Shown: positions 15,601 to 63,224, numbered from the stretch's first letter. The stretch: DNA of 64,000 bases from Candidatus Uhrbacteria bacterium (GCA_016844925.1 JAERTI010000056.1:96533-160532); one strand, 5' to 3'. The notes: generated by a model not told the origin, from the letters alone. Program-made: numbers and translations.

Positions 15601-16431
15601 ATGGCACGGAGGGATTTTTTCAAACGCACACAGCGAAAGCGCTATAAAGCCGGACGGTATCGCAATCCGTATTTTCAGAATGTCAAAAAAATTCCATGGA
15701 AGCCGTTAAGTGCTGTTGTCGGAACGTTGGTTGTGATCTTACTAGGATTAAACCTGATGTTCTCCAGTCCACGTCTTGCGATTCAGAATGTTCAGATTAA
15801 GGGCGTTGAACACATCGACCCAGCTCAAATAGAGCAGCTCGTTCAGTCCTACCTGCAAAGCCGCGCCTTGCTGATATTCAAGACCTCGAACCAATTCTTG
15901 TTTTCTTCTGAAGAGCTGAGTACTGAATTAGAAAACGCGTTTGCATTGGCGAATGTTAGTATGGGGCAGTCAGGGGGGATACTTACGATTACGATCGCAG
16001 AAAGAACGTCGAACTTAATTTGGGAGTCAGGGCAGGGGAGATATGTTGTTGATCTCGAGGGGGTGGTGACACGAAGCCTTGGGGCAGAGGAGGATCTGGG
16101 ACAACCTTTGCCTACATTTTCCGACACAAACAATCTGGACGTCTCAGTAGGGGACATTGTCATGACACCAGAGGAGATCGAGAATGTGTTTGCCTTTCTT
16201 GATCAGCTTGAGGCGCAAGGAATCACGTATGACACCATTCGCGTGGATCGTCTTGCTGGTAAATGGATGAGCGTCGAAACAACCGAAGGATTTGAAATTC
16301 TGTTTGACTCCGTTGGAGACATCTCCACACAAGCCTCTCATTTGGAAACAGTGCTACTAGACCAGGTTGAAGATCGTTCAGAGCTCGAATATATCGATGT
16401 ACGGTTTGGTGATCACGTCTACTATAAATAG
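15601..16431 (+). CDS. ftsQ: cell-division protein FtsQ/DivIB-like
   Basis: Basic N-terminus, single TM helix, then a POTRA-like extracytoplasmic domain. Confidence 0.5.
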   Translation: MARRDFFKRTQRKRYKAGRYRNPYFQNVKKIPWKPLSAVVGTLVVILLGLNLMFSSPRLAIQNVQIKGVEHIDPAQIEQLVQSYLQSRALLIFKTSNQFLFSSEELSTELENAFALANVSMGQSGGILTITIAERTSNLIWESGQGRYVVDLEGVVTRSLGAEEDLGQPLPTFSDTNNLDVSVGDIVMTPEEIENVFAFLDQLEAQGITYDTIRVDRLAGKWMSVETTEGFEILFDSVGDISTQASHLETVLLDQVEDRSELEYIDVRFGDHVYYK

Positions 16432-24142: not shown

Positions 24143-24246
24143 ACCGTCTCCTTGTCATGAGGTGACCACAGTTTATACCCGAAAATAGGCGATTTGTCAA
24201 CCGACCGATCCACGAATTGCCTTGTTTCCGGTATAATGTCGGCACT

Positions 24247-25656
24247 ATGAGAGCCATTTCATTGACCCTCCTACTAGGCATCATCCTCACCAGCTTTCCC
24301 CTTTCCACTGGGGCCGAGGATGATTTTCTTTTTAACCCCCACTACCTCGTTTCTGACGCGGAGATGACCGATGTGTTCTCCATGACAGTTGACGATGTAC
24401 AGCGCTTTCTCACACGTGGAGGTCTGGGAGACCTTGTGACCGAGAACGTCGACGGCATTGAGATGACAGCCGCAGAAATCATCTACAACGCTGCCATCGA
24501 ATTCGAGCTCAGCCCGAAATTTCTTCTCGTCCTTCTTCAACGCGAACAATCTCTTGTGGAAGACGACTTCCCCTCCCAAGATCAACTCGACTGGGCCATG
24601 GGGTATGCGGTCTGTGACGACTGCTCCAAGTCAGATCCACGCATTCAAAAGTTCAAAGGCTTTGGGAACCAGGTCTACTGGGCAGCAGAGCGCATCCGCA
24701 CAAGCTATCTAGAGGATCTTCGTTCACGCGGCTACACTCAGACGGGCATGGGTCCTGGTATCGAGGCAACGATTGATGGAACACTTGTCACACCGGTGAA
24801 CTACGCTACCGCATCTCTCTACACCTACACCCCTCACTTACACGGAAACGAAAACTTCGCACGCATCTGGGAAAAATGGTTCGTGCACGAATATCTAAGC
24901 GGCACTCTGCTACAAGACGTAAGCAATGGGGGTATTTGGTTGATCCAACACGGCGTACGTCGACCAATCACATCCAGGACGGCATTCTACTCACGATTTA
25001 ACCCTGACGCCGTCATTCAAGTTTCCTCCTCAGAGCTCGATCGTTACCCTCAGGGGACCTCTATCAGCTTTCCAAACTATTCTCTCCTCCGCGCGCCGAC
25101 TGGAACTGTCTTCCTTATCGTGGATGATGAACGTCGTGGATTCGCCTCTCAAGACGCCTTCCGCCAAATCGGCTTCTCTCCAGATGAAATCGTCGACGTG
25201 ACCTGGGAGGACCTCGAGGCCTACACAGACGGAACACCGATCACCATCGAATCCGTCTACCCTCAAGGCACTCTCCTTCAAGATAGAAGCAATGGAGGTA
25301 TCGTCTACGTTGAAGAAGGTATTCGACACCCAATCATGTCGCGAGAAATTCTCCAGAACCGCTACGCGTCTCTGCCGGTCATTCCCGTTGACCCAGAAAC
25401 ACTTGAGGATTACGAGATTGGAGACTACGCTCTCTTCCACGACGGAACACTCGTTGCCGCAGAAGGCTCACCTGACGTCTTCGTGATCGCAGACGGGCAG
25501 CGTCGTCACATCGCCGATGAGATTACCTTCCGTGAGTACGGCTGGAGTTTTGACCAAGTCGTGTGGACCAATGAGCGCTCCGTTCTCCTACACCCTCTTG
25601 GGGACCCACTTTCCACGGAGCTTGTTGAAGATATTATTGAAGTCGCTTCAAACTAA
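24247..25656 (+). CDS. secreted repeat-containing protein of unknown function
   Basis: Signal peptide MRAISLTLLLGIILTSFPLSTGA; three tandem repeats of about 100 aa (GTLLQDxSNGGI...G(V/I)R(R/H)PI(T/M)SR...); ORF opens at 24217; TATAAT at 24232-24237. Confidence 0.5.
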   Translation: MRAISLTLLLGIILTSFPLSTGAEDDFLFNPHYLVSDAEMTDVFSMTVDDVQRFLTRGGLGDLVTENVDGIEMTAAEIIYNAAIEFELSPKFLLVLLQREQSLVEDDFPSQDQLDWAMGYAVCDDCSKSDPRIQKFKGFGNQVYWAAERIRTSYLEDLRSRGYTQTGMGPGIEATIDGTLVTPVNYATASLYTYTPHLHGNENFARIWEKWFVHEYLSGTLLQDVSNGGIWLIQHGVRRPITSRTAFYSRFNPDAVIQVSSSELDRYPQGTSISFPNYSLLRAPTGTVFLIVDDERRGFASQDAFRQIGFSPDEIVDVTWEDLEAYTDGTPITIESVYPQGTLLQDRSNGGIVYVEEGIRHPIMSREILQNRYASLPVIPVDPETLEDYEIGDYALFHDGTLVAAEGSPDVFVIADGQRRHIADEITFREYGWSFDQVVWTNERSVLLHPLGDPLSTELVEDIIEVASN

Positions 25657-28759: not shown

Positions 28760-29707
28760 ATGAACGTAGTCTTTTTTGGAACACCACGCTTCGCCTGCCC
28801 GTTCTTAAAGGCCCTCATCGACGACCCCGTAATCGAGGTCGTCGCGGCGTTTTCTCAACCTGATAAGCCAGCAGGGCGAGGTGGAGATTTGCTTGCCGCG
28901 CCTGTGAAACTTCTCGCACAGGATCATCTCATCCCTACGCAAACTCCTAAGAGCCTCAGAAAGGATCCTGCTATCGTCTCTCTTCTAAAACGATACGATG
29001 CGGACATGTTCGTCGTCGTGGCCTACGGAAAGATCTTGCCAAAAGACATTCTCGACATCCCCAAGATGGGAGCGATCAACGTGCACCCATCCATTCTTCC
29101 TCGCCACCGAGGACCATCCCCTATGCAGGCAGCCATCGCACAGGGAGATCTTCAAACAGGCGTGACCATCATGCTACTGGACGAAGGTATGGACACAGGA
29201 CCCCTCTTGGCGTCCGAGACGATTCAAATTGACGACAACGAGACGTACAGTTCACTTGAGAAGAAAGTTCACCTGCAGGGACCAGGTCTCCTGGTCGAGA
29301 CCCTCCACCGATACCACGCAGGACAGGTTGACCCCATTCCTCAGAACGAGGAGAAGGCAACGCTCACGCACCTGCTTCACCGAGATGATGGACATGTTGT
29401 TTGGAGTGAGTCGTTAAGCGAAATTGAACGAAAGAGTCGCGCCTGGCAAAACTGGCCGGGACTCTGGAGCATGTGGGACCGTGTCAGCGGCGTGTGTATC
29501 CGCCTGAAACTTATCTCCGTTAGACCGTCCGATTTCCGCGCTGATGTCCCCCCTGGCACCGCCACCGTTAAGGATGGACGACTCTTTATTGATTGCGCAA
29601 ACGGAACACTGGAGATCCTAGAAATCCAACCGGAGGGCAAACCAAAAATGAACGCGGCGGCGTTCATTCAAGGCTATCCAGACATTCACCGATCCCTACT
29701 GACGTGA
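28760..29707 (+). CDS. fmt: methionyl-tRNA formyltransferase
   Basis: Formyltransferase motifs (INVHPSILPRHRG, SLH-x-D core) plus a C-terminal domain; start lies 2 nt after the def stop. Confidence 0.85.
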   Translation: MNVVFFGTPRFACPFLKALIDDPVIEVVAAFSQPDKPAGRGGDLLAAPVKLLAQDHLIPTQTPKSLRKDPAIVSLLKRYDADMFVVVAYGKILPKDILDIPKMGAINVHPSILPRHRGPSPMQAAIAQGDLQTGVTIMLLDEGMDTGPLLASETIQIDDNETYSSLEKKVHLQGPGLLVETLHRYHAGQVDPIPQNEEKATLTHLLHRDDGHVVWSESLSEIERKSRAWQNWPGLWSMWDRVSGVCIRLKLISVRPSDFRADVPPGTATVKDGRLFIDCANGTLEILEIQPEGKPKMNAAAFIQGYPDIHRSLLT

Positions 29708-31225
29708 GGCGAGAGCCTTTGCAGGAGCGCCTTTCACAGGCGCTGGGACAAATTCCTCGACCTCGGCGGTCGCGGTTTTTTTGTTTACGATAAATGGGAC
29801 AACGAATAAAAGATACCCGAGACCGATCGGATGGTTGAGGTAAGGAGAAAAGATGTGTGTTGCAAAGAGGAGAATAACACCTGCTGTGAGTGCGTACCCA
29901 AGCCACGCTTGATCCGTCCACCGGTAACGCTGAAGCCGCCGAATTAGTTCCCAACCCGCGTAGAGGAAGGCTAAAGGTCCGATTATCCCCATCTTGATCC
30001 AAAGCTCAAACCATCCCCACTCCATAGAATATGTCGTCCATGTTCCATCAGGGTTAATCGCTCGAGCTCGCGGGTCATCAGTTTGGAATGTCACCGTCGC
30101 CCCAAAGCCGTGACCGACAAGTGGGCTGCGAGAGATTTCACCAAGCATCGGCCAGAGGAGTTTCCAACGACTAGAGATCGCCACATCGTCGGAGTCCGTC
30201 GTACGTTCCTTCAGCGAATCGACGAGTGCTGAACTCGTGAGATCCTGCGGTGGGAATGGAAACAGCACAATAGCCACCAACCCAATGACAGCGACAATTT
30301 TCGTGATAAAGACCCACCCAAGATATCTGAAGGTTTGTTTTGTTGTTGGATGATGGGTTCGCCAAAGCATCCAGAGTGTGAAAATAACGGCCGGCGTAAG
30401 CCCTACCCAGAAGCTACGAGATAGGCTCAACAGAACGATACTAAATGTCAGTGCGCCTAACCCCACAAGCCAAGAGCGGCGGATCCCTGATCCAACCATC
30501 GAGAGAACCATCAAGCCAAAAAGCATGACGAAAATCTGTGACTGAATGAAGACGCGATAAAGGCCACCCTCAAGAGCGGTAATCTCAGCAATACGAAGGT
30601 CTCGGAAAAATTCGTAAAGCGGTGTCAAAAGAGAAGCGTCAAGGTGAGAGAAGGCGTAAAGCAGAACCAACGAGAGCCCACTCACCCACACAGCACCAGC
30701 CGCAAGGACTTGCAGGAGGTCATGTCGTTGTTGTGGCCCCCATCGAACAGAAAACATCGGAAGCAGGTAGAGCAAATAGAGGTAGGCATTCCCATCTGCA
30801 AAGACAACGGAAGGATCGCGAGAGAGCGTGCCGATGATCAGCCCCATGGCCGCTGCAAGAATAAGTAGTCCGAAATGTGGTTGATCGACGATATCTGCTC
30901 GACGAAGTTTGTATCGACGTGTCAGCAGACCAATCCCCCACCCTGCCAGGATGCCAATGAAGATTGCCATGCGGAGCGAGAGCGGAAAACCACCAATACT
31001 CGCTGAGATGAGCACGCCATGTGGGTTAATGAACAACTCCAGAAACGCAAGGTACATCGCTCGATCCAGGCGCTTGTAAGCCACAAAGGCACTGGAGAAC
31101 ATCAGACCCAGAATAATCCCCGTCCCCATGTCCCATCCATACGCTAAAAAGCCCAGACCATAGAGAATGGCCGCCATGACGATCGATTCTTTGAATGTTT
31201 TCCCAAAAAACTGCTGCATACTCAC
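29696..31225 (-). CDS. O-antigen ligase/polymerase (Wzy_C)-family membrane protein
   Basis: About 12 TM helices; the loop motif LSLSRSFWVG is typical of WaaL/O-antigen ligase-like proteins. Confidence 0.5.
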   Translation of the reverse strand: MSMQQFFGKTFKESIVMAAILYGLGFLAYGWDMGTGIILGLMFSSAFVAYKRLDRAMYLAFLELFINPHGVLISASIGGFPLSLRMAIFIGILAGWGIGLLTRRYKLRRADIVDQPHFGLLILAAAMGLIIGTLSRDPSVVFADGNAYLYLLYLLPMFSVRWGPQQRHDLLQVLAAGAVWVSGLSLVLLYAFSHLDASLLTPLYEFFRDLRIAEITALEGGLYRVFIQSQIFVMLFGLMVLSMVGSGIRRSWLVGLGALTFSIVLLSLSRSFWVGLTPAVIFTLWMLWRTHHPTTKQTFRYLGWVFITKIVAVIGLVAIVLFPFPPQDLTSSALVDSLKERTTDSDDVAISSRWKLLWPMLGEISRSPLVGHGFGATVTFQTDDPRARAINPDGTWTTYSMEWGWFELWIKMGIIGPLAFLYAGWELIRRLQRYRWTDQAWLGYALTAGVILLFATHIFSPYLNHPIGLGYLLFVVPFIVNKKTATAEVEEFVPAPVKGAPAKALASRQ

Positions 31226-35397: not shown

Positions 35398-36687
35398 CTA
35401 GTCCCCTTCCTCCGTGGGCAGGTCCGAGAACAGGCTCGGTCCGTCGTAGGGCAGGAGCAGCTCGCGCCCCGTCTTGATGCGCCCTCGCTTGTCAGGCGAG
35501 ATCTTTGCCTTGGACTCAGGGCGGGTGCTCACCGGACGCGCCATCAGCTGCTTGAGCACCTTCGGCCTGTGTCCGATGACGCGAGACCAGATCTCCTCGA
35601 GCCCGGGGCCGAGATCACCGTACAGGATGGCTTCTGCCTGTGAGAGCAGGACCACATCGTTGCCGAAGGTCTGCCAGGGGTTCGGCGTGGAACTCTCGGA
35701 CACCTGCGCGTTCGAATCCTTGGTCTTGAACATCTTGCCGAGACCACCGAAGAACCGCTTCAGAGCCCCTTGTTCCTCCTCGTTCTTCATCGCGAGCGGA
35801 TCCTCTTCGACCCTTCCGTCTCGGAACGTCCCCTCCGGATTGCCATCGAGCTTGATGTCCTGCACAACGATGACACACCGCTGCCTGACCACCTCCTCTC
35901 CGTCCTCCATGACCGTGTAGGGCACGTAGGCGTGCGCGCAGTAGATCTCGAAGGTGGCGCCGGTCTGGACCTCACCCTTGCCGTACAGATTCACCAGACG
36001 ACGACAGGCAGACTCCAGGCGTGCGCGCAGGATGGTCCGAGAGTCGTAGTCCGCATCCCGATCCTCGTCAGAGGTCAGGACCTTCACCTCCTCTCGGAAC
36101 AGGTTGACCACCTCGCTTGTCGACGGGAACAGCTGAACGAACACGTCCACGTCCTCTTCGCCGGTGTCCGGGTCGACCTCCGTGTGCATGATGGTTCCAC
36201 GGATGGCGATGATGGCGGGCGTGTGCTGATCCGCAAGGACCATCGATCGCTCAGACGCGCTGGGGTAGTCGATCACCTTGCCGCCAACACCCTCGTCACC
36301 GGGGACCGTCAGATCCTCGCCCTCTTCGTTGCCTGAGAACGTGCTGAGCGGCTGCTCGGCAGTCAACAGACGAACGAATGGGACGTGCGCCGGCATCTCC
36401 CCCGGAAGGAAGGTCTCACCCGTGACCGTGTTGGTCGCGATGAAGACGTGCGTCTCACGCCCAGGCACTTCGGACTCGAACTCAGCTGCCGCCCGATTTG
36501 CCGAGAGCTCGTCGAACGGGATCAGCTTGCCAGCACGATCCAGCATGACGCGTTCACGTGACTGACTGTTGCCGGTGAGCATCACCACCGCCCCCTTTCG
36601 GACAGCCTTCTCGGGCAGCTCTGACACATCGGCGACGACCTTGTTGGTCGGCACCTGGATGCGGTTGTCATTGTTTTTTTGGGTCAC
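35398..36687 (-). CDS. hypothetical protein, 429 aa (GC-rich island; no recognisable domain)
   Basis: GTG start preceded by AAAGGAGG with a 5-nt spacer; GC about 60% with strong third-position G/C bias; acidic, soluble; ends ...PTEEGD. Confidence 0.5.
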   Translation of the reverse strand: MTQKNNDNRIQVPTNKVVADVSELPEKAVRKGAVVMLTGNSQSRERVMLDRAGKLIPFDELSANRAAAEFESEVPGRETHVFIATNTVTGETFLPGEMPAHVPFVRLLTAEQPLSTFSGNEEGEDLTVPGDEGVGGKVIDYPSASERSMVLADQHTPAIIAIRGTIMHTEVDPDTGEEDVDVFVQLFPSTSEVVNLFREEVKVLTSDEDRDADYDSRTILRARLESACRRLVNLYGKGEVQTGATFEIYCAHAYVPYTVMEDGEEVVRQRCVIVVQDIKLDGNPEGTFRDGRVEEDPLAMKNEEEQGALKRFFGGLGKMFKTKDSNAQVSESSTPNPWQTFGNDVVLLSQAEAILYGDLGPGLEEIWSRVIGHRPKVLKQLMARPVSTRPESKAKISPDKRGRIKTGRELLLPYDGPSLFSDLPTEEGD

Positions 36688-49786: not shown

Positions 49787-49817
49787 TTATCTTCGCATGT
49801 CCACACTAGGAGGAACT

Positions 49818-50747
49818 ATGGACTACAGAGCGTTCCTGCGCAGACACGACGCTGCGCTCAAGACGGCAGGACTCTGGGCGAGGGCCTGGACACTGCAGCG
49901 ACTGCTCGAAAGCTGCCTGCTCGTCGTCAAGATGGATGCAACCTACTACACACGTGAGTGGGCCATCAAGCACCGACAGATGCTGGTCGATGCTCTCTGC
50001 GAAGTCTGTGTGACGGCGCAGATCCCGCTGCCGGACATCGAGCCGGACATGGTCAATGGCCTGTTGCCCACGGACCAAGAACTGAAGCCCGGCTCCCGCA
50101 AACGACTCGAGATCGTCCAGACCTTGCGCGGTCGACTGCGTGATCACGGGAGTCTGGGAGCGGCAGAGCTCCACGGCTTTGCCGATGTGCTCAGCGCCTT
50201 CGAGTTCAACGACTTCAGCGGCCCCAACATGGTCCAGATGCTCGCCGCAATCAACGCTCGCCTGCTCAAGGAGGGGCTCGAGCCCCTCCGTGGCCCCTAC
50301 AAGGGCAATGTGATCTGCCCGGGCGCTGGCACAGAGGGACCTCTGCGCACGGTGCTGATCGTGGACGACAGTCTGGAGGCCTTGATCAAGACGTGGATCG
50401 CCGTCGCAGGTTGGCCCACTCTCGAGCCTCACAAGTACCTGTACGAACCCTCGCAGAGAACCCTGCTGGAGGGAGAGGCAAGCGAGACTCGGCTTGCCGA
50501 GGTGGCCGCGCAAATCCTGAAGTGCCAGCCGGACGTCGTCATCATGGACCACGGCCTGGGCGACATCCACGGAGACAAGCTCATCGAGACCCTTCGGGCG
50601 AGCGGTGGCAAGGACATCATCTTCGTCGCCAATACCGGCGGTGACATCGACGCGTTCAGATCCGTCCGATTGCGCGAGAACTTCGACAAGGGCAAGAACC
50701 TCTCTGCCCTCGCGTCGGCGCTCCATCGAGCGAACCGACGCCGCTAG
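49818..50747 (+). CDS. orphan response-regulator-like protein: novel N-terminal domain with a C-terminal receiver (REC) domain (GC-rich island)
   Basis: AGGAGG ribosome-binding site 5 nt before the ATG at 49818; C-terminus has VLIVDD (beta1), DVVIMDHGLGDIHG (beta3 with phospho-acceptor Asp), ANTGG (beta4 Thr) and FDKGK (beta5 Lys); the N-terminal 175 aa show no recognisable motif. Confidence 0.5.
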   Translation: MDYRAFLRRHDAALKTAGLWARAWTLQRLLESCLLVVKMDATYYTREWAIKHRQMLVDALCEVCVTAQIPLPDIEPDMVNGLLPTDQELKPGSRKRLEIVQTLRGRLRDHGSLGAAELHGFADVLSAFEFNDFSGPNMVQMLAAINARLLKEGLEPLRGPYKGNVICPGAGTEGPLRTVLIVDDSLEALIKTWIAVAGWPTLEPHKYLYEPSQRTLLEGEASETRLAEVAAQILKCQPDVVIMDHGLGDIHGDKLIETLRASGGKDIIFVANTGGDIDAFRSVRLRENFDKGKNLSALASALHRANRRR

Positions 50748-51522: not shown

Positions 51523-51574
51523 AAAAGCAGCTTTACGCTGCCCCGCACCCTTACGTGGGTGCTATTTATTTTGT
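51523..51574. terminator. back-to-back terminators for convergent genes
   Basis: gcagc-tttac-gctgc preceded by AAAAA serves the minus strand; gcaccc-ttacgt-gggtgc followed by TATTTATTTT serves the plus strand. Confidence 0.5.
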
Positions 51575-52504
51575 TCGAATTTCTGTGACCTCGTAGCCAG
51601 CGAACCCTTCCACAAACCCATCAGGGGTAAGGGTCTCAAGATTTCCCTGGGCAAACGGCGTGAGCTGCACCTCCAGCACGAGCGGGTTCTCTGCATTTGC
51701 CAAAATACGCAACGACCCGAACCGATTCTTGGCTTCGATCACTCTTACGCTACTAACCACGCCATCAATCGTCACCGTGTACTCACCCCAATCACCAGAG
51801 GCTTCGAGGTCCAAGAGATCTTCTTCCACTTCCTCTTCAGCCCCGTCGTCGGTATCTCCAGGGATAAGTGTGGCGAGCTGATCGATATAACTCTGCACCT
51901 GATCTGCCACATCCTCAATCTGAGCAAGTGACTCATCAAACAGCCCAAAGCTGAGCGTGGTCTTGCGTGTATTTACAAGCTCGTCGTACTGCGCTCGAGA
52001 GAGCCAGATGAGTGTCTCTTCAACCTCACCAGAGTCCCCTTCCGTCCAAAGACTTGGGAGCAGCAGGCGCTCCCCATCATCGAGAGCCGACGTGGAAATC
52101 GTGCCCTCGACAACAACATCTTGATACTCCACTTCTGGAGCATCAGGAATCTCTTCTCCGATCGGTGTCTCGGCATACTGAGCCTCATGAGCCTCACGTG
52201 CAGCCGTCGACGCTTCCGTCTCTTCCTGCGTTGTAATTGACCAGGAAAGATCTACACGCTCCCCAGCAGTCCACGACTCAAGCTTGACCACACGCTCATC
52301 TGATTCTGCGCCAAGCCAATCGACAATCTGCCCGCCGACCCCTAAGACTGTCGGCTGCAATACAACTTCTGCTCCAGAAGCAAAAGAAAGCGACTGAGCC
52401 GCTTCCTCTGCTGTTAACGTTGAGGTGACCTGCGCTACGCACCCTGCGCCAAATAAAACCAGCGCTGAGAGCCCGAGTGCAACTCGCCCCATGGTTAAGA
52501 TCAT
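51566..52504 (-). CDS. hypothetical secreted/lipoprotein-like protein
   Basis: Start taken at MILTMGRVALGLSALVLFGAGC (signal with a Cys; weak lipobox); the ORF extends upstream to 52702 but that stretch would overlap the thioredoxin-like gene. Confidence 0.4.
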   Translation of the reverse strand: MILTMGRVALGLSALVLFGAGCVAQVTSTLTAEEAAQSLSFASGAEVVLQPTVLGVGGQIVDWLGAESDERVVKLESWTAGERVDLSWSITTQEETEASTAAREAHEAQYAETPIGEEIPDAPEVEYQDVVVEGTISTSALDDGERLLLPSLWTEGDSGEVEETLIWLSRAQYDELVNTRKTTLSFGLFDESLAQIEDVADQVQSYIDQLATLIPGDTDDGAEEEVEEDLLDLEASGDWGEYTVTIDGVVSSVRVIEAKNRFGSLRILANAENPLVLEVQLTPFAQGNLETLTPDGFVEGFAGYEVTEIRTK

Positions 52505-52505
52505 A

Positions 52506-52772
52506 CTATTCAGAGATGTCTTCTCCAGCTGCCCACTTCGCGAGTCGCTCCTCGGAAGTCGCGCCACAGATCCACATCTTAGATTCATCATTATAGAAAA
52601 ACGGAACACCGCCGCACTTACCGCCATCAATTTCCTCAAGCTTTTTGGCATTGTCATCGTTATGCCATGTCTCAAGCTTCTCAATCGCGGTGCCGTCCTC
52701 AATCATTCTATCCACAATGGGAAGCATTTGATGACAGTGTGGGCATTCCTCTCCGTAAAAAAAGTAGAGCAT
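52506..52772 (-). CDS. thioredoxin/glutaredoxin-like small protein
   Basis: CPHC active-site motif (GEECPHCHQMLPIV) and GGVPFF further along. Confidence 0.6.
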   Translation of the reverse strand: MLYFFYGEECPHCHQMLPIVDRMIEDGTAIEKLETWHNDDNAKKLEEIDGGKCGGVPFFYNDESKMWICGATSEERLAKWAAGEDISE

Positions 52773-57805: not shown

Positions 57806-58567
57806 TTACAACACAAGAATCAGGACGCCCAGGACCACACGTAAAACAGCCAACTCGGCGTAACTGTGAGTCTTCAGGAACGCTAGAAGGGTCTTAATCG
57901 TGAGGAACGCGGTGATGCCAGCTGTGACAAACCCAACAAGGAGTGGGAGCACCTCAATCGCCACGGCTCCCGTCACAACATCCTTCAGCTTCACCAAACC
58001 AACGATGGCGATCGTCGGGATGCCGAGCAGGAACGAGAATTTCGTTGCCGTCTCCCGTGAGAGCCCCATGTGAAGCCCGGCGGTAATCGTGATACCTGAT
58101 CGAGACGTTCCGGGAATAAGCGCGATCGCTTGGGCCAGACCAATGCTCATAGCCCTCTTAAGCCCCACGTCCTTTACCTGATCTTTAGTTTTTACCGCTC
58201 GACGATCGACCAGATACAACACAACTCCCCAAACAATAAACGACCAGGCGACCACTTCCGCCGACCGAGGATCAAAATCGATCAGCTCAAAGATGCCACC
58301 GATGATGAGAACAGGAATTGTCGCGAGCACAAGCCACGTACTCAGAGAGCGCCCGTGCTTCTTCTCGCCCAACAACTTCACCTCTGGCCAAAGGGCCACC
58401 ACCACCGCCATGAGCGTTGCAAGATGAATCACCGCATCGAATGCTACATCCTGAATCTCCCAACCAAAAAGCTCAGGAATCAAAATAAGAAATCCTGAAC
58501 TTGAAATGGGAAGAAATTCTGTCACCCCTTGTACGAGACCAAGAGTAAACGCCTGAAGCAAATCCAT
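57806..58567 (-). CDS. uppP: undecaprenyl-diphosphatase
   Basis: MDLLQAFTLGLVQGVTEFLPISSSG and PGTSRSGITI motifs. Confidence 0.85.
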   Translation of the reverse strand: MDLLQAFTLGLVQGVTEFLPISSSGFLILIPELFGWEIQDVAFDAVIHLATLMAVVVALWPEVKLLGEKKHGRSLSTWLVLATIPVLIIGGIFELIDFDPRSAEVVAWSFIVWGVVLYLVDRRAVKTKDQVKDVGLKRAMSIGLAQAIALIPGTSRSGITITAGLHMGLSRETATKFSFLLGIPTIAIVGLVKLKDVVTGAVAIEVLPLLVGFVTAGITAFLTIKTLLAFLKTHSYAELAVLRVVLGVLILVL

Positions 58568-58569
58568 AC

Positions 58570-61458
58570 CTAGTCGAATCGAATGGCCTGACCTGACTTA
58601 AGGGTACCTGATTGAACTGAAGGAGCTGTGGTTTCTGGCTTTGGTTTCTCTTGCGCAGGTGCCGGCTGTTCTTTCTTTGGTGCAGCCTCGACGCGCTCCT
58701 TCGGCTTACGCTCCCCCTCTCCTGTCGAGGGCCTGGACTCGCCACCAGCACTAGGCTTTTTCTTTCGACGTCGCTTTCGTTTCTTCTTCGGCGCATCAGA
58801 TGAACGCCCCTGCCCCCTTGTAGCGTTCGATTCTCTTGGCTTACGAGGAGTAGATGTCCCCTTTTCCTTCCCCTGATCTTTACGACGCTCCGCACGAATC
58901 TTCTCAAGACAATCCTCACAATACATCGGACGGCTTCGATCAAGCTTCACATCGGCTGTGAAGTTCTTTGTGCAATCTGAACAGGTGTAGTCACCGCTGT
59001 CGTGGGCAACATGTGAAGCTTCTGCCTTTGGTGCATCCACCTTTTCTGATGGCGCACGCTCTATCTCTTGTCGTGGTGCCCGATCCTCATCAGCCTTCTT
59101 CTCACTCTCAACCTCTCGAACAACCTCAACCTCTTTCCTGGTCTCTACCCGCTTTTCGCGGCGAGTCTCTCGCTTCTTATCGTCACTCCTAGACGATGTT
59201 CGTTCTCCACGCGATCGATCACCTCGCTCATCTGTTCGACCATTCTTTGACGCAGCAGATTCCACTGGTGCTTCTTCTCTCGGTGCGGTTTCCTTGGAAG
59301 GCTCCTGCCCCTTCACTGGCTCAACAGCAACAGCTTCAGCTCTAACTTGAGGTTCTTTCTTTGGCTCTGCCGCAGCAGTTGGTTCCGTTTGAGCGACAGG
59401 CTCTGCCGCTTTCTTTGGAACAACTTCTTCTTTTGAAGCCCCTTGTGCCTTTGCCTCCGATCGAGTCTCATCTGCTCCAGCAGTCCGTGCGTCCTCAGAC
59501 GCAACGTTAGCGTTTGATTCGTCAGCAGCCTTAGCCTCTTGTTTCTTTTTGCCAGCTTCGACATCTTTCGTCGCTGCACTCGTTGCCTCAGCTTGCGACC
59601 GACCCGCTCCACCTCTATCGACGTCCACTTGCTTGGATTCAGTGCTAGCCACTGTCTCGTCGGTCGTTTTTTCATGCTCTACAGCAGCAGTCTTATCCTC
59701 CGATTCTTCCTTCGACTCATTCTTTAATTCTTCTTTCGACGATCCCTTCGTATCCTTCCTCAACGCCTCTAGCCCAACAGCGGCCTCCTCAACAGGCTTC
59801 TCAACAACCTCTGTCTCTGCTGGTTTTGGTGGCTCTGGCCGTGGCTCTTTCTTCTCAGGAGCCCCAGCCTTCTTCCGGTCATCCTTCTTCCTGTCATCAC
59901 GAGCAGGCTTATCAGCCGTCTTAGGCTTGTCACCTGCCTTGGGTCTTGGTGGACGCTTCCCACCCTTCTTTTTCTCCTCACGAACAATCGTAATACAATC
60001 GTCACAATAAATCGGACGACTTCGATCTAGTTCAACGGGCAACACAATGTCGGTGTCACACCGCGTACAGTTGTACTCATGACGTGGCTTTCCTCCTTTA
60101 CCACCGCCACCACTGGCCGCCTTCTTTTTCTTCTCTGCTTCTTTGTACAAATCTTCGACATCATGATCGGCCATGCCACTCCAGATCAAGATCTTCTCCT
60201 CGATCTGTTCCCGAGGTGCCGCATAACGCTCACGAGAAATCTTCGTCACTTTATCGAAACTATGAGTCTTCTCTGCAATTGGTGGAAGTGTCACCGCAGA
60301 AAACGGCATGGAGGTCACACCGTCGATGAGGAGCTTCAGGTACACATTATATTTCGGCAGGTTGATGATGTCCTCAGGGGTGAAGCGAGGCATGAACTCC
60401 TGCTCCATAAACATCGCATCAGGTGAACCCACACGAAAGGTCACCATGGTTCCAACGTTACCAAACACCGCATCACGCACCGCCTCTGAAAGCTGGGCGA
60501 TGTACTGGTGGGCCATGGTCAGACACAAGCGATACTTACGTGCCTCGGACAAAATCGACGCAAACGAATCAACGGCAAAGTTTTGGAACTCATCAACGTA
60601 CAAGTAAAAGTCGTCACGCAAGTGCTCTGGTGTGTCCACGCGCTCCATGGCGGAGAGCTGAATCTTTGTCACAAGCAAACCACCCAAGAGACGGGAGTTA
60701 TCTTCTCCCACACGCCCCTTGGACAGGTTGATAATGAAAATCTTGTTCGAGTCCATGATCTCACGAACGTTGATCGTGGACTTCACCTGCGAAACAATAT
60801 TTCGGATCACGCTCGCAGAGAGAAACTGACCGATTTTGTTCTGAATCGCCGCCGTCGCCTCTGTGGCATACTTCTCTGTCCAACTCGCAAATTCCTTCAC
60901 CCAGAATTGTTTCACCACTGGATCTTTAATATTCCCCACCATCCGCTTTCGATACTCGGCGTCAGACATCATGCGGTTAATGCCCAAGAGCGTCTGCCCC
61001 TGGTTATCAAGCAATGCCAAAATGGTGTTGTTCAAGATGTATTCCATTCGAGAGGACCACATTCCCTCCCAAATCTTGGCAAATACTCCCATCATTCCTG
61101 AGGCAACCAAGTGTTTATGCCGCTCTGAAACCGCCTCAAGAATATTAAACCCAACCGGGTAATCAAGGTCGGCCGGATTGAAATACACCACGTCGTTGAG
61201 ACGCCATGACGGGATAAAGTCGACAAGTTTCTCAGCGGCATCTCCGTGAGGATCGATGTAGCAACAACCATGCCCGGCATAAATGTCGGATAGCATCAGG
61301 TTCTCCATCAAGGTCGACTTTCCCATACCCGTCTTTCCAATGACGTACATATGTCGTCGACGGTCGTCCGTCTTGATGCCGAACTTCGTCATCGCATTTC
61401 GGAAATTGGTCTTTCCGAAATAGATCACTTCGTTCTCATGGTCGTGATTCATGCTCAT
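58570..61458 (-). CDS. VirD4/TrwB/TraG-family (type IV coupling protein-like) P-loop ATPase with a ~530-aa charged low-complexity C-terminal extension containing two zinc-ribbon repeats
   Basis: Walker A (VIGKTGMGKST), Walker B-like (FYLYVDEFQNF), T4CP signature (RKYRLCLTMAHQYIAQL); no TM helix; the tail has two C-x2-C-x17-C-x2-C units sharing LDRSRP(I/M)YC(D/E)DC. Confidence 0.6.
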   Translation of the reverse strand: MSMNHDHENEVIYFGKTNFRNAMTKFGIKTDDRRRHMYVIGKTGMGKSTLMENLMLSDIYAGHGCCYIDPHGDAAEKLVDFIPSWRLNDVVYFNPADLDYPVGFNILEAVSERHKHLVASGMMGVFAKIWEGMWSSRMEYILNNTILALLDNQGQTLLGINRMMSDAEYRKRMVGNIKDPVVKQFWVKEFASWTEKYATEATAAIQNKIGQFLSASVIRNIVSQVKSTINVREIMDSNKIFIINLSKGRVGEDNSRLLGGLLVTKIQLSAMERVDTPEHLRDDFYLYVDEFQNFAVDSFASILSEARKYRLCLTMAHQYIAQLSEAVRDAVFGNVGTMVTFRVGSPDAMFMEQEFMPRFTPEDIINLPKYNVYLKLLIDGVTSMPFSAVTLPPIAEKTHSFDKVTKISRERYAAPREQIEEKILIWSGMADHDVEDLYKEAEKKKKAASGGGGKGGKPRHEYNCTRCDTDIVLPVELDRSRPIYCDDCITIVREEKKKGGKRPPRPKAGDKPKTADKPARDDRKKDDRKKAGAPEKKEPRPEPPKPAETEVVEKPVEEAAVGLEALRKDTKGSSKEELKNESKEESEDKTAAVEHEKTTDETVASTESKQVDVDRGGAGRSQAEATSAATKDVEAGKKKQEAKAADESNANVASEDARTAGADETRSEAKAQGASKEEVVPKKAAEPVAQTEPTAAAEPKKEPQVRAEAVAVEPVKGQEPSKETAPREEAPVESAASKNGRTDERGDRSRGERTSSRSDDKKRETRREKRVETRKEVEVVREVESEKKADEDRAPRQEIERAPSEKVDAPKAEASHVAHDSGDYTCSDCTKNFTADVKLDRSRPMYCEDCLEKIRAERRKDQGKEKGTSTPRKPRESNATRGQGRSSDAPKKKRKRRRKKKPSAGGESRPSTGEGERKPKERVEAAPKKEQPAPAQEKPKPETTAPSVQSGTLKSGQAIRFD
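58895..58990 (-). repeat. intragenic repeat copy 2 (encodes the second zinc ribbon)
   Basis: DNA and protein similarity to 59990-60075 (YTCSDCTKNFTADVKLDRSRPMYCEDC versus YNCTRCDTDIVLPVELDRSRPIYCDDC). Confidence 0.55.
59990..60075 (-). repeat. intragenic repeat copy 1 (encodes the first zinc ribbon)
   Basis: See copy 2. Confidence 0.55.
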
Positions 61459-63224
61459 ACGGGCAGATTGGGTGGTACGTAATCATCTGTCTCTTCGGAC
61501 ACTTCTTGGGCACTAGCAGGCGCATCCGTCGGCGAAGGTACACTCAAAGGTGCATCAAGTGCCTCATGCTCTGCCTCTTCGTGCTGCGCGCGCATAGCCG
61601 CAAAATTCTCAGGGTCGATCACCCGAGGTGCTGGTGTTACCTGTTCAAGTGCATCTGGCGCAGGTGCTTGTGCTGGTGGCGACTCGATCCTGCGAGCATC
61701 TAACTGTGTAGGCGCTACCGGCCGTGGAAGCGTGCCAGGAAGTGGCTCATCAGAAACATCGGTTGGCAGCCCAATCGGTGGCGCTCCTTTCTTTGTCGGC
61801 TCACCTGCCCCAACAGGCAGTCCTGGAATATCCTCAGCAGGAGCCGGCTGCTGATCATACCCAGGCAAAATGTTCTCCATGTGCGTAATAGGCAGCCCCA
61901 CAGGTGGTTCGCCGCGCTTGGACTCGGACTTGCGCACAAGCGGTGCTTTTACCGTAATCGTTGGGAAGTGCCAGAGCGTGGCAAGCTCCTCAGCATTCAA
62001 AAAGATCGGGTTGGCACCGACACCAAAACTTCGACCCTTGTAGGCACGTATAAGCTTCCCCTGACGTGCTGTATACGCCAAACGCATCCACCAGTAGTCA
62101 TCTTTAGGAACCGTCGGGATGTAAAAAGAAAATCGGTTTAAATTCAGGTGAGCGTACTGGTTCAACATTCCTTTGATGATCGCCGTACGCTCCACCTTCA
62201 CAAAAGCGTTCTTCTTCGCGGAATACAAGATGCGAATCTTTACCCCATGTCCCACCTTGGTGGTCTTGCGCAAGACAGCCTCCGCCTCGTCCTTCTGTGG
62301 AAGCGTCATCTTAAACGCCTTCCACGGGTCATCCTCGGTCTCTCCAGGAACGCCAAACAACAATGGATTCAGGTCGATACCCAGCGCCTCATTCAGAAGA
62401 CCACTTGGCCAGGACATAAGGCTCTCAAGCGCCGAAAGGAATGCGCTCTTCTTTGGCTTGTCCTCATCGCCGTAAATTTTTCGTACGTGCTTCACACCGT
62501 GCTCTGCCCAACTGTTTGTGGACGGCTGTACAAGCATCTGGAACCAAAAATGCTCTCCGGGTTTCATCTTGGCCATCTGCTCAAGCATGTAGCCCAGTGG
62601 ATCCTTAATCTCTCCCGTCAGCCGGTCCTCAAAATCGACATACGTCCGAATGGGGTACATGTAGTGCCTGTCGAGCGTAATCTCACCTCCCCACATCTCG
62701 TACTCTTCATCCGGAAACTCACTTGGGAAGTTTGTGACATAATCTTCCACCTCAAAGATCTCCGCGTCAGGATAGTGCGCATAGATACCCGCCTCGATCA
62801 CATCACGGAAACGCGTCTGTGTGCGAATCAAAAACTGGATGTAGCCTTCCGTCGAGATAATCTCAAAGGAAAACGTTGGGTGGAGTTTTCCGTAGATCCA
62901 TTCTTCCTTCCAGGTGATAGACGACTTGGCGCCATAGAGTGTCGCAAACAAGTTCTCCAGCGCCTTTGGTGTCTGCTCTGTCATGGCTGGAACATCAATC
63001 GCCAAGAGTACATACTTTAGCCGACCCACATACTTTCCCTGCCTGGAGTTTTTCCACATCGCAATGAATCCCCAGAACAACGTGACCACGATAGGAATCC
63101 ATGCGGTCCAAACAAAAACATCCCAAAGGATGACATCAATCCGTTGGCTAAAATACGCAGACCAACCGCTACCTCCGGCCGTTGCGACTTCATTCACAAT
63201 TGGGATGGCAAGCATGGGTAACAT
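61455..63224 (-). CDS. hypothetical membrane protein (2 N-terminal TM helices, large soluble domain, Pro-rich C-terminus), translationally coupled to the T4CP-like ATPase
   Basis: ATGA start/stop overlap with the downstream ATPase gene; N-terminal helices VILWDVFVWTAWIPIVVTLFWGFIAMW; the C-terminal 150 aa are P/A/E-rich. Confidence 0.4.
   Translation of the reverse strand: MLPMLAIPIVNEVATAGGSGWSAYFSQRIDVILWDVFVWTAWIPIVVTLFWGFIAMWKNSRQGKYVGRLKYVLLAIDVPAMTEQTPKALENLFATLYGAKSSITWKEEWIYGKLHPTFSFEIISTEGYIQFLIRTQTRFRDVIEAGIYAHYPDAEIFEVEDYVTNFPSEFPDEEYEMWGGEITLDRHYMYPIRTYVDFEDRLTGEIKDPLGYMLEQMAKMKPGEHFWFQMLVQPSTNSWAEHGVKHVRKIYGDEDKPKKSAFLSALESLMSWPSGLLNEALGIDLNPLLFGVPGETEDDPWKAFKMTLPQKDEAEAVLRKTTKVGHGVKIRILYSAKKNAFVKVERTAIIKGMLNQYAHLNLNRFSFYIPTVPKDDYWWMRLAYTARQGKLIRAYKGRSFGVGANPIFLNAEELATLWHFPTITVKAPLVRKSESKRGEPPVGLPITHMENILPGYDQQPAPAEDIPGLPVGAGEPTKKGAPPIGLPTDVSDEPLPGTLPRPVAPTQLDARRIESPPAQAPAPDALEQVTPAPRVIDPENFAAMRAQHEEAEHEALDAPLSVPSPTDAPASAQEVSEETDDYVPPNLPV

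Follow-up and report, generated by a model that had tools for sequence, protein, structure and literature searches.

We found that a gene in a 64-kb window from Candidatus Uhrbacteria (the window being the whole stretch of 64,000 nucleotides analyzed) encodes a Patescibacteria-specific, soluble VirD4/TrwB-like P-loop motor, which is co-produced with a DUF8128 partner anchored in the membrane. Behind its ATPase core the protein carries a long charged tail with two zinc fingers; one finger followed by a disordered tail is the norm in this Patescibacteria ATPase family, and the gene described here is its extreme example. We propose, at a probability of about one half, that the tail may act as a flexible recruitment arm, in which the fingers and a conserved C-terminal peptide would serve for docking, basic tracts would capture a polyanion, and a disordered spacer would provide reach.

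The 962-residue ATPase matched PF10412 (TrwB_AAD_bind) at 43.2 bits against a cut-off of 20.5 (3e-11), and a VirB4-type NCBIfam match spanned the P-loop only; sequence profiles favor a type IV coupling protein (T4CP) over a VirB4 protein. Its nucleotide-binding domain is of the VirD4/TrwB P-loop type, with an all-alpha insertion at about residues 112–222, and homologs in Candidatus Uhrbacteria are annotated as [quoted passage not shown] No transmembrane segment was detected in the ATPase (19-residue Kyte-Doolittle mean at most 1.24), in which Walker A is reached as early as residue 41. In the linker that leads from the core into the tail, K444, K445, K449, K457, and P458 are near-invariant across the homolog alignment (Table 1).

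Table 1. Layout of the ATPase gene and its partner, in positions of the 64-kb window
Feature	Residues	Position	Strand	Basis or remark
Whole gene, 962 aa: TMD-less VirD4/TrwB-like ATPase with zinc-finger/disordered tail		58570..61458	-	ORF list, PF10412
ATPase core	1-430	60169..61458	-	
Walker A, GKTGMGKS	41-48	61315-61338	-	
Walker B, VDEFQNF	288-294	60577-60597	-	
Lys-rich linker helix	431-459	60082..60168	-	Helix 434-449 predicted
Zinc finger 1 and helix (Cys 464/467/485/488)	460-498	59965..60081	-	PF23477, TIGR04272 matches
Basic P/K-rich stretch behind finger 1	499-544	59827..59964	-	Charge blocks
Linear motif PPKPxE..VEK..E..(I/V)(S/G)LxxL	545-570	59749..59826	-	Occupancy 0.99
Hypervariable acidic/Ala-rich disordered spacer	571-819	59002..59748	-	Largely confined to this lineage
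Zinc finger 2 and helix (Cys 826/829/847/850)	820-864	58867..59001	-	PF23477
Polybasic tract KKKRKRRRKKKPS	891-903	58750..58788	-	Occupancy 0.98, identity 0.54
C-terminal peptide SGTLKSGQAIRFD	950-962	58573..58611	-	Occupancy 0.98, identity 0.59
Partner gene, 589-aa DUF8128 (PF26449) membrane protein		61455..63224	-	Upstream of ATPase

A reading made from the DNA alone, without database searches (hereafter the sequence-only reading), had described a charged, low-complexity tail of some 530 residues, and our analysis bears out its extent and its K/E/A/R/D-rich composition. The tail comprises residues 431–962, 532 residues C-terminal to the core, of which 44.5% are charged and 10.5% are ILVFMWY (E 13.9%, K 13.9%, A 11.8%, R 9.4%, P 7.5%, D 7.3%), for a net charge of +11. 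Both charged runs quoted in that reading are present, KKKRKRRRKKKPS in the polybasic tract and EKKEPRPEPPKPAETE at residues 535–550 (59809–59856), and all eight tail cysteines lie inside two CxxC-x17-CxxC modules. Net charge amounts to +7 across residues 499–535, behind finger 1, and to +14 across residues 865–910, the block around the polybasic tract behind finger 2. In an AlphaFold2 model built from a 119-sequence alignment, pLDDT was mostly below 50 outside the fingers, including the spacer, and below 55 in the stretch at residues 499–544, for which occupancy and identity are low in homologs. Because model confidence is high in the fingers and mostly under 50 elsewhere, the tail is predicted to be disordered and punctuated by two folded modules, in agreement with the earlier expectation of disorder. 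A search for a tandem-repeat origin of the low-complexity region returned two tiny arrays only.

The two modules have the core sequences LDRSRPIYCDDC (residues 464–488; 59995–60069) and LDRSRPMYCEDC (residues 826–850; 58909–58983), at the places where they had been noticed, and a six-frame search of the window yielded no further CxxC-x17-CxxC match. Exactly 17 residues separate the CxxC pairs in both modules and in every copy detected by regular expression in the 120 closest homologs. With 17 of 46 residues identical between them and 55%–62% identity at the DNA level, the modules are diverged repeats, as had been claimed. Searched with the tail alone, Pfam PF23477 (zf_Tbcl_2) aligned to both modules with E = 4.7e-7 and 29.8 bits (cut-off 27); the whole protein scored 27.7 bits, and the single modules fell below the cut-off at 23.8 and 19.5 bits (the latter finger 2), as did the TIGR04272 (CxxC-x17-CxxC) score of 28.7 against 36. 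Many orthologs carry a precomputed PF23477 match, and by these matches the modules appear to belong to an already catalogued domain, PF23477/TIGR04272. Two members of this family from Methanosarcina mazei, both free-standing archaeal proteins, were shown by ICP-MS to bind zinc (PMC12704099).

In the AlphaFold2 model, finger 1 (residues 460–500, pLDDT 80–94) has strands at 460–463 and 470–473 and a helix at 486–498, and finger 2 (residues 820–860, pLDDT 90–93) has strands at 823–825 and 832–834 and a helix at 848–864. The second CxxC of each module (C485/C488 and C847/C850) is placed at the start of the helix, and the predicted topology, a zinc knuckle, a beta-hairpin, and a helix issuing from the second CxxC, is treble-clef-like. 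The model does not show a classical zinc ribbon of the TFIIB or RpoP type, in which both knuckles come from beta-hairpins in a three-stranded sheet, and zinc-ribbon Pfam models gave the modules only 14–20 bits, far under their cut-offs. Of the earlier description as duplicated zinc ribbons, the duplication of homologous zinc fingers thus stands, whereas the predicted fold is a different one. A PDB sequence search with the module profile returned chance matches to C2H2 knuckles and no solved relative.

Sequence comparison shows finger 2 to be an old internal duplicate of finger 1 in one Uhrbacteria sub-lineage. Across homologs, identity is 74% among finger 1 copies and 60% among finger 2 copies, and finger 2 copies group together, apart from the finger 1 of the same protein. 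A clade signature, LD(R/P)SRP, is common to both finger types. Protein identities between finger 1 and finger 2, 42% within one protein and 43% between proteins, speak against gene conversion or concerted evolution of the two; identical codons between the two fingers are mildly in excess (12 of 17 versus 7.0 expected, P about 0.01). Invariant positions in finger 1 are Y462, C464, C467, V475, L477, D478, R481, I483, and C488.

Beyond what the sequence-only reading contained, the tail has two further conserved elements, a polybasic tract and a C-terminal peptide, and the gene has a DUF8128 partner. Identity in homologs is 0.74 for finger 1, 0.59 for the C-terminal peptide, 0.54 for the polybasic tract, and 0.04 for the spacer, the occupancy of which is 0.17. 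The tract has the consensus KRKRxRKKK and contains 9–11 K/R residues. The peptide follows a family consensus of (S/T)G(T/S)L(K/R/H)xGQx(I/V)xF(D/E)-COOH, with G951, G956, and F961 at least 90% conserved and a local pLDDT of up to 63; no other C-terminus of the SGTLxxGQxIxF(D/E) type occurs in the 64-kb window. C-terminal motifs fall into three classes, PGQxIxF, EVPEDVLRKILE, and LKxxLxxxL. Matching the peptide to a clamp-binding motif or an SSB tip failed on residue register. In the linear motif behind finger 1, which reads VGLEAL at 59761–59778 in this gene, L563 and L566 are at least 90% conserved, and in distant members of the family, too, the finger is succeeded by this motif, as "ISLxEA..P..F."

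The tail is genuine and widespread. A finger at about residue 460 was found in 117 of the 120 closest homologs, and 38 of the 120 have two or three, a third having been gained in some relatives (P0005, P0009). Among 80 species-level Patescibacteria loci, drawn from Uhr-, Magasanik-, Buchanan-, Falkow-, Nealson-, Nomura-, Niyogi-, Wolfe-, and Wildermuthbacteria and others, 64 have a finger behind the core, one has a second finger, and 16 are finger-less; the family as a whole counts 6,324 representatives at E ≤ 1e-30. The post-core region carries a net positive charge in 119 of the 120 close homologs and is neutral in the remaining one. The two-finger tail recurs in an independent ENA assembly (P0001), where it is 78% identical and has an indel in the spacer only. 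The possibility raised in the sequence-only reading, that orthologs might lack the tail, was not borne out among the 120 closest homologs, the 80 loci, or P0001, since orthologs keep it.

These data also bear on whether the tail is an artefact of mis-assembly, of a frameshift fusion, or of a chance open frame in non-coding low-complexity DNA. Base composition in the region is skewed (GC skew −0.21, AT skew −0.19), and spurious long ORFs occur in other frames and on the opposite strand, as such an account would have it. Against this, the reading frame is kept to the stop codon in more than 100 orthologs with the C-terminal peptide in common, conservation and an intact frame extend to finger 2 and the polybasic tract, and the architecture recurs in the independent assembly. 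Frameshift errors are moreover recognizable where they occur, and none was seen in this gene; a seemingly free-standing finger protein (P0272) beside a 410-residue ATPase at locus L087 proved at the DNA level to be a frameshifted or deleted tail and no natural split. We regard the artefact reading as effectively refuted. A search with the module profile returned five candidates, of which four passed, all of them free-standing proteins of 50–72 residues; one finger protein (P0273) adjoins DNA polymerase B and radical-SAM genes, and its surroundings contain no ATPase. At three finger-less loci, a separate small protein with two RGG-linked fingers is encoded directly downstream of the ATPase. The three loci are closely related and therefore probably reflect one evolutionary event.

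The partner and the ATPase are translationally coupled, the TGA stop of DUF8128 overlapping the ATPase start (ATGA). DUF8128 has a TM helix (Kyte-Doolittle 2.01), a fold like that of the VirB4 N-terminal domain, an acidic Pro-rich tail of charge −18, opposite to the +11 of the ATPase tail, and a PPNLPV end; it, too, carries a conserved C-terminal peptide. In many homologs DUF8128 is fused to the motor. Fingers occur in the split (TMD-less) forms only, with none in 50 fused forms, and the median tail is 253 residues in split forms versus 70 in fused ones. A Pfam scan of 34 ORFs of the window detected no T4SS or relaxase genes, the identified ORFs being all housekeeping; VirB3, VirB6, and VirB8 genes were likewise absent near the ATPase. 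The order secD-secF-DUF8128-ATPase-(hydrolase)-uppP-HD...mnmA is kept in two other genomes, and the locus is core-chromosomal, beside secDF and uppP. PADLOC provided no grounds for membership in a defense system, with generic mad8 and HerA ATPase matches only. Patescibacteria genomes hold about two VirD4-like genes each, almost none beside a T4SS, with only 148 of 5,713 T4CP homologs near virB4; these homologs may be exapted, and one from Saccharibacteria was reported non-essential for epibiotic growth (PMC12102498).

How might such a tail work? By analogy with the C-terminal domains of TraD and DotL, which recruit relaxosome or adaptor proteins, it could be the recruitment arm of a membrane-bound motor, with its finger or fingers and C-terminal peptide as putative docking elements. 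A polyanionic ligand, most likely DNA or RNA, would be caught by the basic tracts that adjoin each finger, and the spacer would set the reach of the arm; the additional finger and the 245-residue spacer would be lineage-specific elaborations of this plan. Nucleic-acid binding, suggested already in the sequence-only reading, is plausible because polybasic tracts flank the fingers and RGG-linked two-finger proteins accompany finger-less homologs. Several observations speak against the recruitment arm: neither finger is itself basic (net −2 and +1), and their invariant residues (Y, V, L, I, and the four Cys) look mainly structural; known T4CP C-terminal domains are acidic and this tail is net basic; and 16 of the 80 loci, together with every fused form, do without a finger. 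The T4CP analogy may also not carry over, because the window shows no linkage to a T4SS or relaxase and the gene is syntenic with housekeeping genes.

Some of the same evidence would suit a tail with no nucleic-acid role, a purely protein-protein regulatory or adaptor arm whose fingers and C-terminal peptide dock on the motor ring, on DUF8128, or on another machine, so gating or localizing the ATPase. The near-neutral charge of the fingers and the versatility of the treble-clef fold are consistent with this, as are the oppositely charged tails and conserved C-terminal peptides of the two partners. The confinement of fingers to proteins in which motor and DUF8128 are separate polypeptides is as expected if the tail compensates for a lost covalent link, and there are comparable cases in Cagbeta and DotL, which protein partners regulate or serve (PDB titles; PMC7434980). 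Such an arm leaves unexplained the conserved polybasic tract and the RGG-type linkers of the separate two-finger proteins, both typical of polyanion binders, and we hold it to be possible, if rather unlikely. Function might instead reside in finger 1 and the C-terminal peptide only, with finger 2 and the acidic/Ala-rich spacer as neutral, expansion-prone filler. The spacer is barely conserved, homolog tails range from 151 to 490 residues (median 273) versus 536 here, the nearest relative (P0001) has a spacer shorter by about 55 residues, and a second finger is present in only 38 of the 120 close homologs and at one of the 80 species-level loci. What renders this account doubtful is finger 2 itself, the conservation of which, with all four Cys intact and a confidently predicted fold, points to purifying selection ever since the duplication, an old one, together with the gain of a third finger in some relatives. 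Less convincing still is a lipid tether, in which the polybasic tail would hold the soluble motor to the anionic membrane instead of or besides DUF8128. The missing TM segment and the conserved KRKRxRKKK tract would fit, but the motor already has its own TM partner, coupled to it in translation and in many homologs fused to it, a tract some 460 residues away from the motor would make a poor anchor, and the fingers are left unexplained; we consider this tether very improbable.

The recruitment-arm reading can be extended, speculatively and with little confidence, to a Patescibacteria-wide, chromosomally fixed, T4SS-independent translocase formed by DUF8128 and the finger-tailed ATPase, a third VirB4/VirD4 lineage whose zinc-finger and polybasic arms would capture nucleic acid. 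If true, a VirB4-like N-terminal domain would be combined with a VirD4-like motor, and nucleic acid would be imported from or exported to the host of these genome-reduced, nucleotide-auxotrophic epibionts. Independently of this extension, one large branch of the orphan VirD4-like genes of Patescibacteria gains a fixed partner in DUF8128, a fixed chromosomal neighborhood, and, in its split form, a characteristic tail built of a single conserved zinc finger, a disordered spacer, a polybasic stretch, and a conserved peptide at the C-terminus. Short and conserved, these elements lend themselves to pull-downs, binding assays, and truncation genetics, and they could reveal the cargo of a widespread motor. 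PF23477 and the T4CP-type motor are each already known, and their combination in Patescibacteria is undescribed; our literature search found no earlier description of DUF8128, of the finger domain in Patescibacteria, or of zinc fingers in coupling proteins. The architecture is an undescribed but common design, an architectural variant and not a new principle.

T4CPs are recognized to have variable, charged C-terminal domains by which partners are recruited, as in TraD-TraM and DotL-IcmSW, and those known are acidic; TMD-less T4CP subfamilies are likewise recognized, for which reliance on a separate membrane protein has been postulated (PMC7434980). The sequence-only reading had called such a tail no standard feature of coupling proteins, which overstates the case for a charged C-terminal extension, the more so as a finger with tail is found at 64 of 80 loci, and holds for the zinc finger. 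The unusual traits here are the presence of a zinc finger at all, the addition of a second one, the net-basic charge, and a tail of record length. Relative to F-plasmid TraD, Legionella DotL/IcmO, and Agrobacterium VirD4, the ATPase lacks an N-terminal TMD and any T4SS or relaxase linkage, sits on the core chromosome beside secDF and uppP, has a VirB4-NTD-like DUF8128 protein as its partner, and bears one or two PF23477 fingers in a tail that is basic where theirs are acidic. With the TIGR04272/PF23477 proteins of M. mazei the modules share the Cys spacing and the pattern hydrophobic-x-(F/L)-x-(P/D)...RP-x-Y-C-x-x-C, but those are free-standing whereas the domain here lies within the tail of a 962-residue motor, and the Uhrbacteria core LD(R/P)SRP replaces the PF(K/E)PD..RP of other members. 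VirB4 (TrwK) joins an N-terminal membrane-associated domain to a C-terminal ATPase domain; the gene described here is split, and no VirB4 protein is known to have a zinc-finger/disordered tail. The C-terminal region of bacterial topoisomerase I, which binds single-stranded DNA, consists of tandem four-Cys zinc ribbons followed by a Lys-rich tail and thus resembles our protein in adding repeated small four-Cys modules and basic disordered segments to an enzyme. The two proteins are unrelated in sequence and probably of different fold class (zinc ribbon versus treble clef), and in the Uhrbacteria protein the modules stand hundreds of disordered residues apart.

The finger-bearing tail of the VirD4/TrwB-like ATPase is real and conserved, and the domain that forms the fingers is itself already known. 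The sequence-only reading had placed a highly charged tail with two repeats behind the motor core; ORF and residue counts bear out its coordinates, composition, and repeats, and the two charged runs singled out lie at aa 891–903 and aa 535–550. Residues 431–962 contain 13.9% E, 13.9% K, 11.8% A, 9.4% R, 7.5% P, and 7.3% D, with 44.5% charged and 10.5% hydrophobic residues and a net charge of +11. The core matches Pfam PF10412 (TrwB_AAD_bind, 43.2 bits) as well as PF02534 and PF12696, and no transmembrane segment was found in the ATPase. Overlapping the tail are four ORFs of 82–156 aa, read in a different frame or from the opposite strand; the tail coding strand is purine-rich (plus-strand GC skew -0.21, AT skew -0.19), which depletes stop codons and so opens extra long frames, and the four look like composition artefacts without support as genes.

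Coordinates of the features discussed (window positions unless a related locus is named)
Feature	Residues	Nucleotides	Strand	Remark
ATPase ORF	962	58570..61458	-	
P-loop ATPase part	aa 1–430			Walker A GKTGMGKS, aa 41–48; Walker B VDEFQNF, aa 288–294
Module 1 (finger 1), CxxC-x17-CxxC	aa 464–488	59995–60069	-	
Module 2 (finger 2), CxxC-x17-CxxC	aa 826–850	58909–58983	-	
Partner gene (DUF8128)	589	61455..63224	-	ATGA overlap with ATPase start
Partner tail	aa 450–589	61455–61874	-	
ORFs overlapping the tail		58473–58943; 59313–59675	-	
ORFs overlapping the tail		58628–58876; 59549–60010	+	
ORFs without Pfam family		15601–16431; 24217–25656; 49797–50747	+	
ORFs without Pfam family		29696–31225; 35398–36687; 51566–52702	-	
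RRKRRKRRR open frame	92 codons	51976–52251	-	overlaps 51566–52702
Downstream two-module ORFs		L017:4913–5269; L018:5090–5461; L020:4423–4776		

All eight cysteines of the tail fall inside the two modules, and no further CxxC-x17-CxxC match was found in the six frames of the 64-kb window. The modules are diverged repeats, as had been proposed, identical at 17/46 protein positions and 55–62% identical in DNA. Both match Pfam PF23477 (zf_Tbcl_2, "probable treble clef zinc finger"), which scores 29.8 bits over two stretches of the tail alone and 23.8 and 19.5 bits against the single modules (cut-off 27); NCBIfam TIGR04272 ("CxxC-x17-CxxC domain") is a further match for module 1, at 28.7 bits, under the cut-off of 36. 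Judged by these profiles, both are divergent members of an already catalogued family, two free-standing Methanosarcina mazei members of which bind zinc by ICP-MS (PMC12704099). AlphaFold2, run with a 119-sequence alignment, models each module at pLDDT 80–94 as two short strands and a helix starting at the second CxxC, a predicted topology that is treble-clef-like. The modules are thus zinc fingers by profile and model (PF23477, AlphaFold2) rather than the classical ribbons that the earlier designation "zinc ribbon" implies, given where the helix begins. Nearly all the rest of the tail has pLDDT <50, matching the disorder anticipated for it. A PDB sequence search with the module profile found no sequence-related solved structure.

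Orthologs keep the tail. Among the best 120 homologs (580–916 aa; the named ones mostly Candidatus Uhrbacteria), 117 have a module near residue 460 and 38 have two or three modules, and 151–490 residues (median 273) follow the conserved W426. In the closest relative, which comes from an independent ENA assembly, the tail likewise bears two fingers; it is 78% identical and is missing about 55 residues of the acidic spacer. A scan of GTDB species-representative genomes yielded 598 relatives; in 64 of the best 80 of these loci a module directly follows the core (two modules in one locus), and the loci range over Uhr-, Magasanik-, Doudna-, Buchanan-, Falkow-, Nealson-, Nomura-, Niyogi-, Wolfe-, Lipton-, Wildermuth-, and Kerfeld-bacteria and Paceibacterota. 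The concern that orthologs might lack the tail, or that a frameshift had produced it, is thereby answered, and an artefact is excluded. With two fingers and 536 residues past W426, the longest tail among the homologs compared, the window gene is the most extended example seen.

A 72-aa "CxxC-x17-CxxC domain-containing protein" (P0272, L087:1053–2596) proved to be an ATPase tail that a frameshift separates from the truncated 410-aa gene call; this rules it out as a separate finger gene and leaves a pseudogene or assembly error. Many contigs with the Patescibacteria-type gene pair (L004, L007, L016, L017, L020–L022, and others) are titled "uncultured Gammaproteobacteria bacterium" or "uncultured Candidatus Saccharibacteria" in GenBank, probably default or wrong labels on binned MAGs.

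Scored against 118 homologs as mean identity to the window sequence, the tail appears not as uniform low complexity but as segments of sharply differing conservation: 0.74 for finger 1, 0.59 for the C-terminal 13 residues, 0.54 for a polybasic tract (consensus KRKRxRKKK), and 0.04, at an occupancy of 0.17, for a 245-residue spacer, with the ATPase core at 0.81. A PPKPxE...(I/V)(S/G)LxxL motif has an occupancy of 0.99. The consensus C-terminus reads (S/T)G(T/S)L(K/R/H)xGQx(I/V)xF(D/E)-COOH, and other clades have EVPEDVLRKILE or an LKxxLxxxL-type helix instead. Charge is arranged in blocks of +7 past finger 1, -13 over aa 536–745 (most of the spacer region), and +14 past finger 2. Elsewhere in the window, a second polybasic run, RRKRRKRRR, lies in an open frame overlapping a 378-aa ORF without a Pfam match.

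Finger 1 copies are 74% identical among themselves and finger 2 copies 60%, against 43% between the two types (42% for same-protein pairs). Common to both is a clade-specific signature, LD(R/P)SRP(I/L/M)YC, where other lineages read PF(K/E)PD..RP(V/I)YC. From these identities and the common signature we infer that finger 2 is the product of an old duplication within the gene that took place in one Uhrbacteria sub-lineage; the copy has since been retained, with no concerted evolution between the fingers. At amino acids common to both fingers (59965–60081 vs 58867–59001), 12 of 17 codons are identical, where local codon usage predicts 7.0 (P ~0.01); such an excess could reflect a local constraint on codons or partial gene conversion, even though the protein pattern speaks for an old duplication.

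The upstream partner has one TM helix, and PF26449 (DUF8128) is found in its orthologs. Its 140-residue tail is acidic (net -18), disordered, and 20% proline, with three PPx(G/N)LP repeats; the C-terminal VPPNLPV is kept in most loci, about 55 of 80 related loci ending the upstream gene in this way. Fused homologs carry an EPPxNLP motif 10–15 residues ahead of where the ATPase begins, which places the gene split exactly after the motif. Such N-terminal fusion of a DUF8128-like region occurs in about one-third of the 150 best family representatives; fused forms have a median tail of 70 aa and a finger in 0/50, and split forms have a median tail of 253 aa and account for every finger found. The phage profile phrog_5156 (PHROGs, 824 positions) spans both genes, with DUF8128 at 50–212 and the ATPase at 406–805; the fused pair therefore also occurs in viruses. 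At L017, L018, and L020, a finger-less ATPase is directly followed by a separate ~100-aa protein with two CxxC-x18-CxxC modules and an RGG-rich linker between them, which looks like a finger pair supplied in trans; because these loci are closely related, they probably count as one evolutionary event.

In other genomes, too, the genes lie in the order secD-secF-DUF8128-ATPase-uppP-HD...mnmA. Every neighbor identified in the window is a housekeeping gene (AddA-like helicase, MreBC, PBP2, LysRS, Alr, GltX, ClpB, PriA, Fmt, RpoA, AlaRS, MurJ, Era, MnmA, HD protein, UppP, and SecF), and no VirB4, VirB6, or relaxase gene was found within it. Six ORFs of 276–509 aa, with well-annotated housekeeping genes around them, match nothing in Pfam at E<=1e-4.

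Established here are the layout of the protein and its conservation, the fold and disorder as predicted, and the coupling of the two genes; together they suggest a membrane-anchored motor ring with a flexible recruiting arm, to which, as a whole, we give a probability of about 0.5. The DUF8128 protein would tether the motor subunits to the membrane as a ring, each subunit projecting a long flexible arm that may recruit something to the motor, as T4CP C-terminal domains do. Candidates for specific docking are the C-terminal peptide and the finger or fingers; the basic stretches next to each finger may bind polyanions (DNA or RNA), and the spacer would fix the arm's reach. The main rival is an arm engaged purely in protein-protein contacts, regulatory or tethering, for example by pairing with the partner's acidic tail or PPNLPV end. 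The fingers are near-neutral (net -2 and +1) and restricted to split forms, both of which favor this alternative; we consider it somewhat unlikely.

We found nothing in the literature that describes DUF8128, the tail with its fingers, or the conserved peptides of that tail, and many orthologs already carry PF10412 and PF23477 tags in databases. The motor domain fits the T4CP family, but the ATPase lacks a TMD and shows no linkage to a T4SS in the window or in those related loci that were examined. T4CPs with charged C-terminal domains are known, as are T4CPs lacking a TMD, for which a membrane partner has been postulated, and T4CP C-terminal domains recruit partners (TraD-TraM, DotL-IcmSW) (PMC7434980). 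In a survey of Patescibacteria T4SS genes, only 148 of 5,713 T4CP homologs lay near virB4, and exaptation of such homologs could not be excluded (PMC12102498). Structurally, the DUF8128-ATPase pair appears to be a hybrid of a VirB4-NTD-like and a VirD4-like part.
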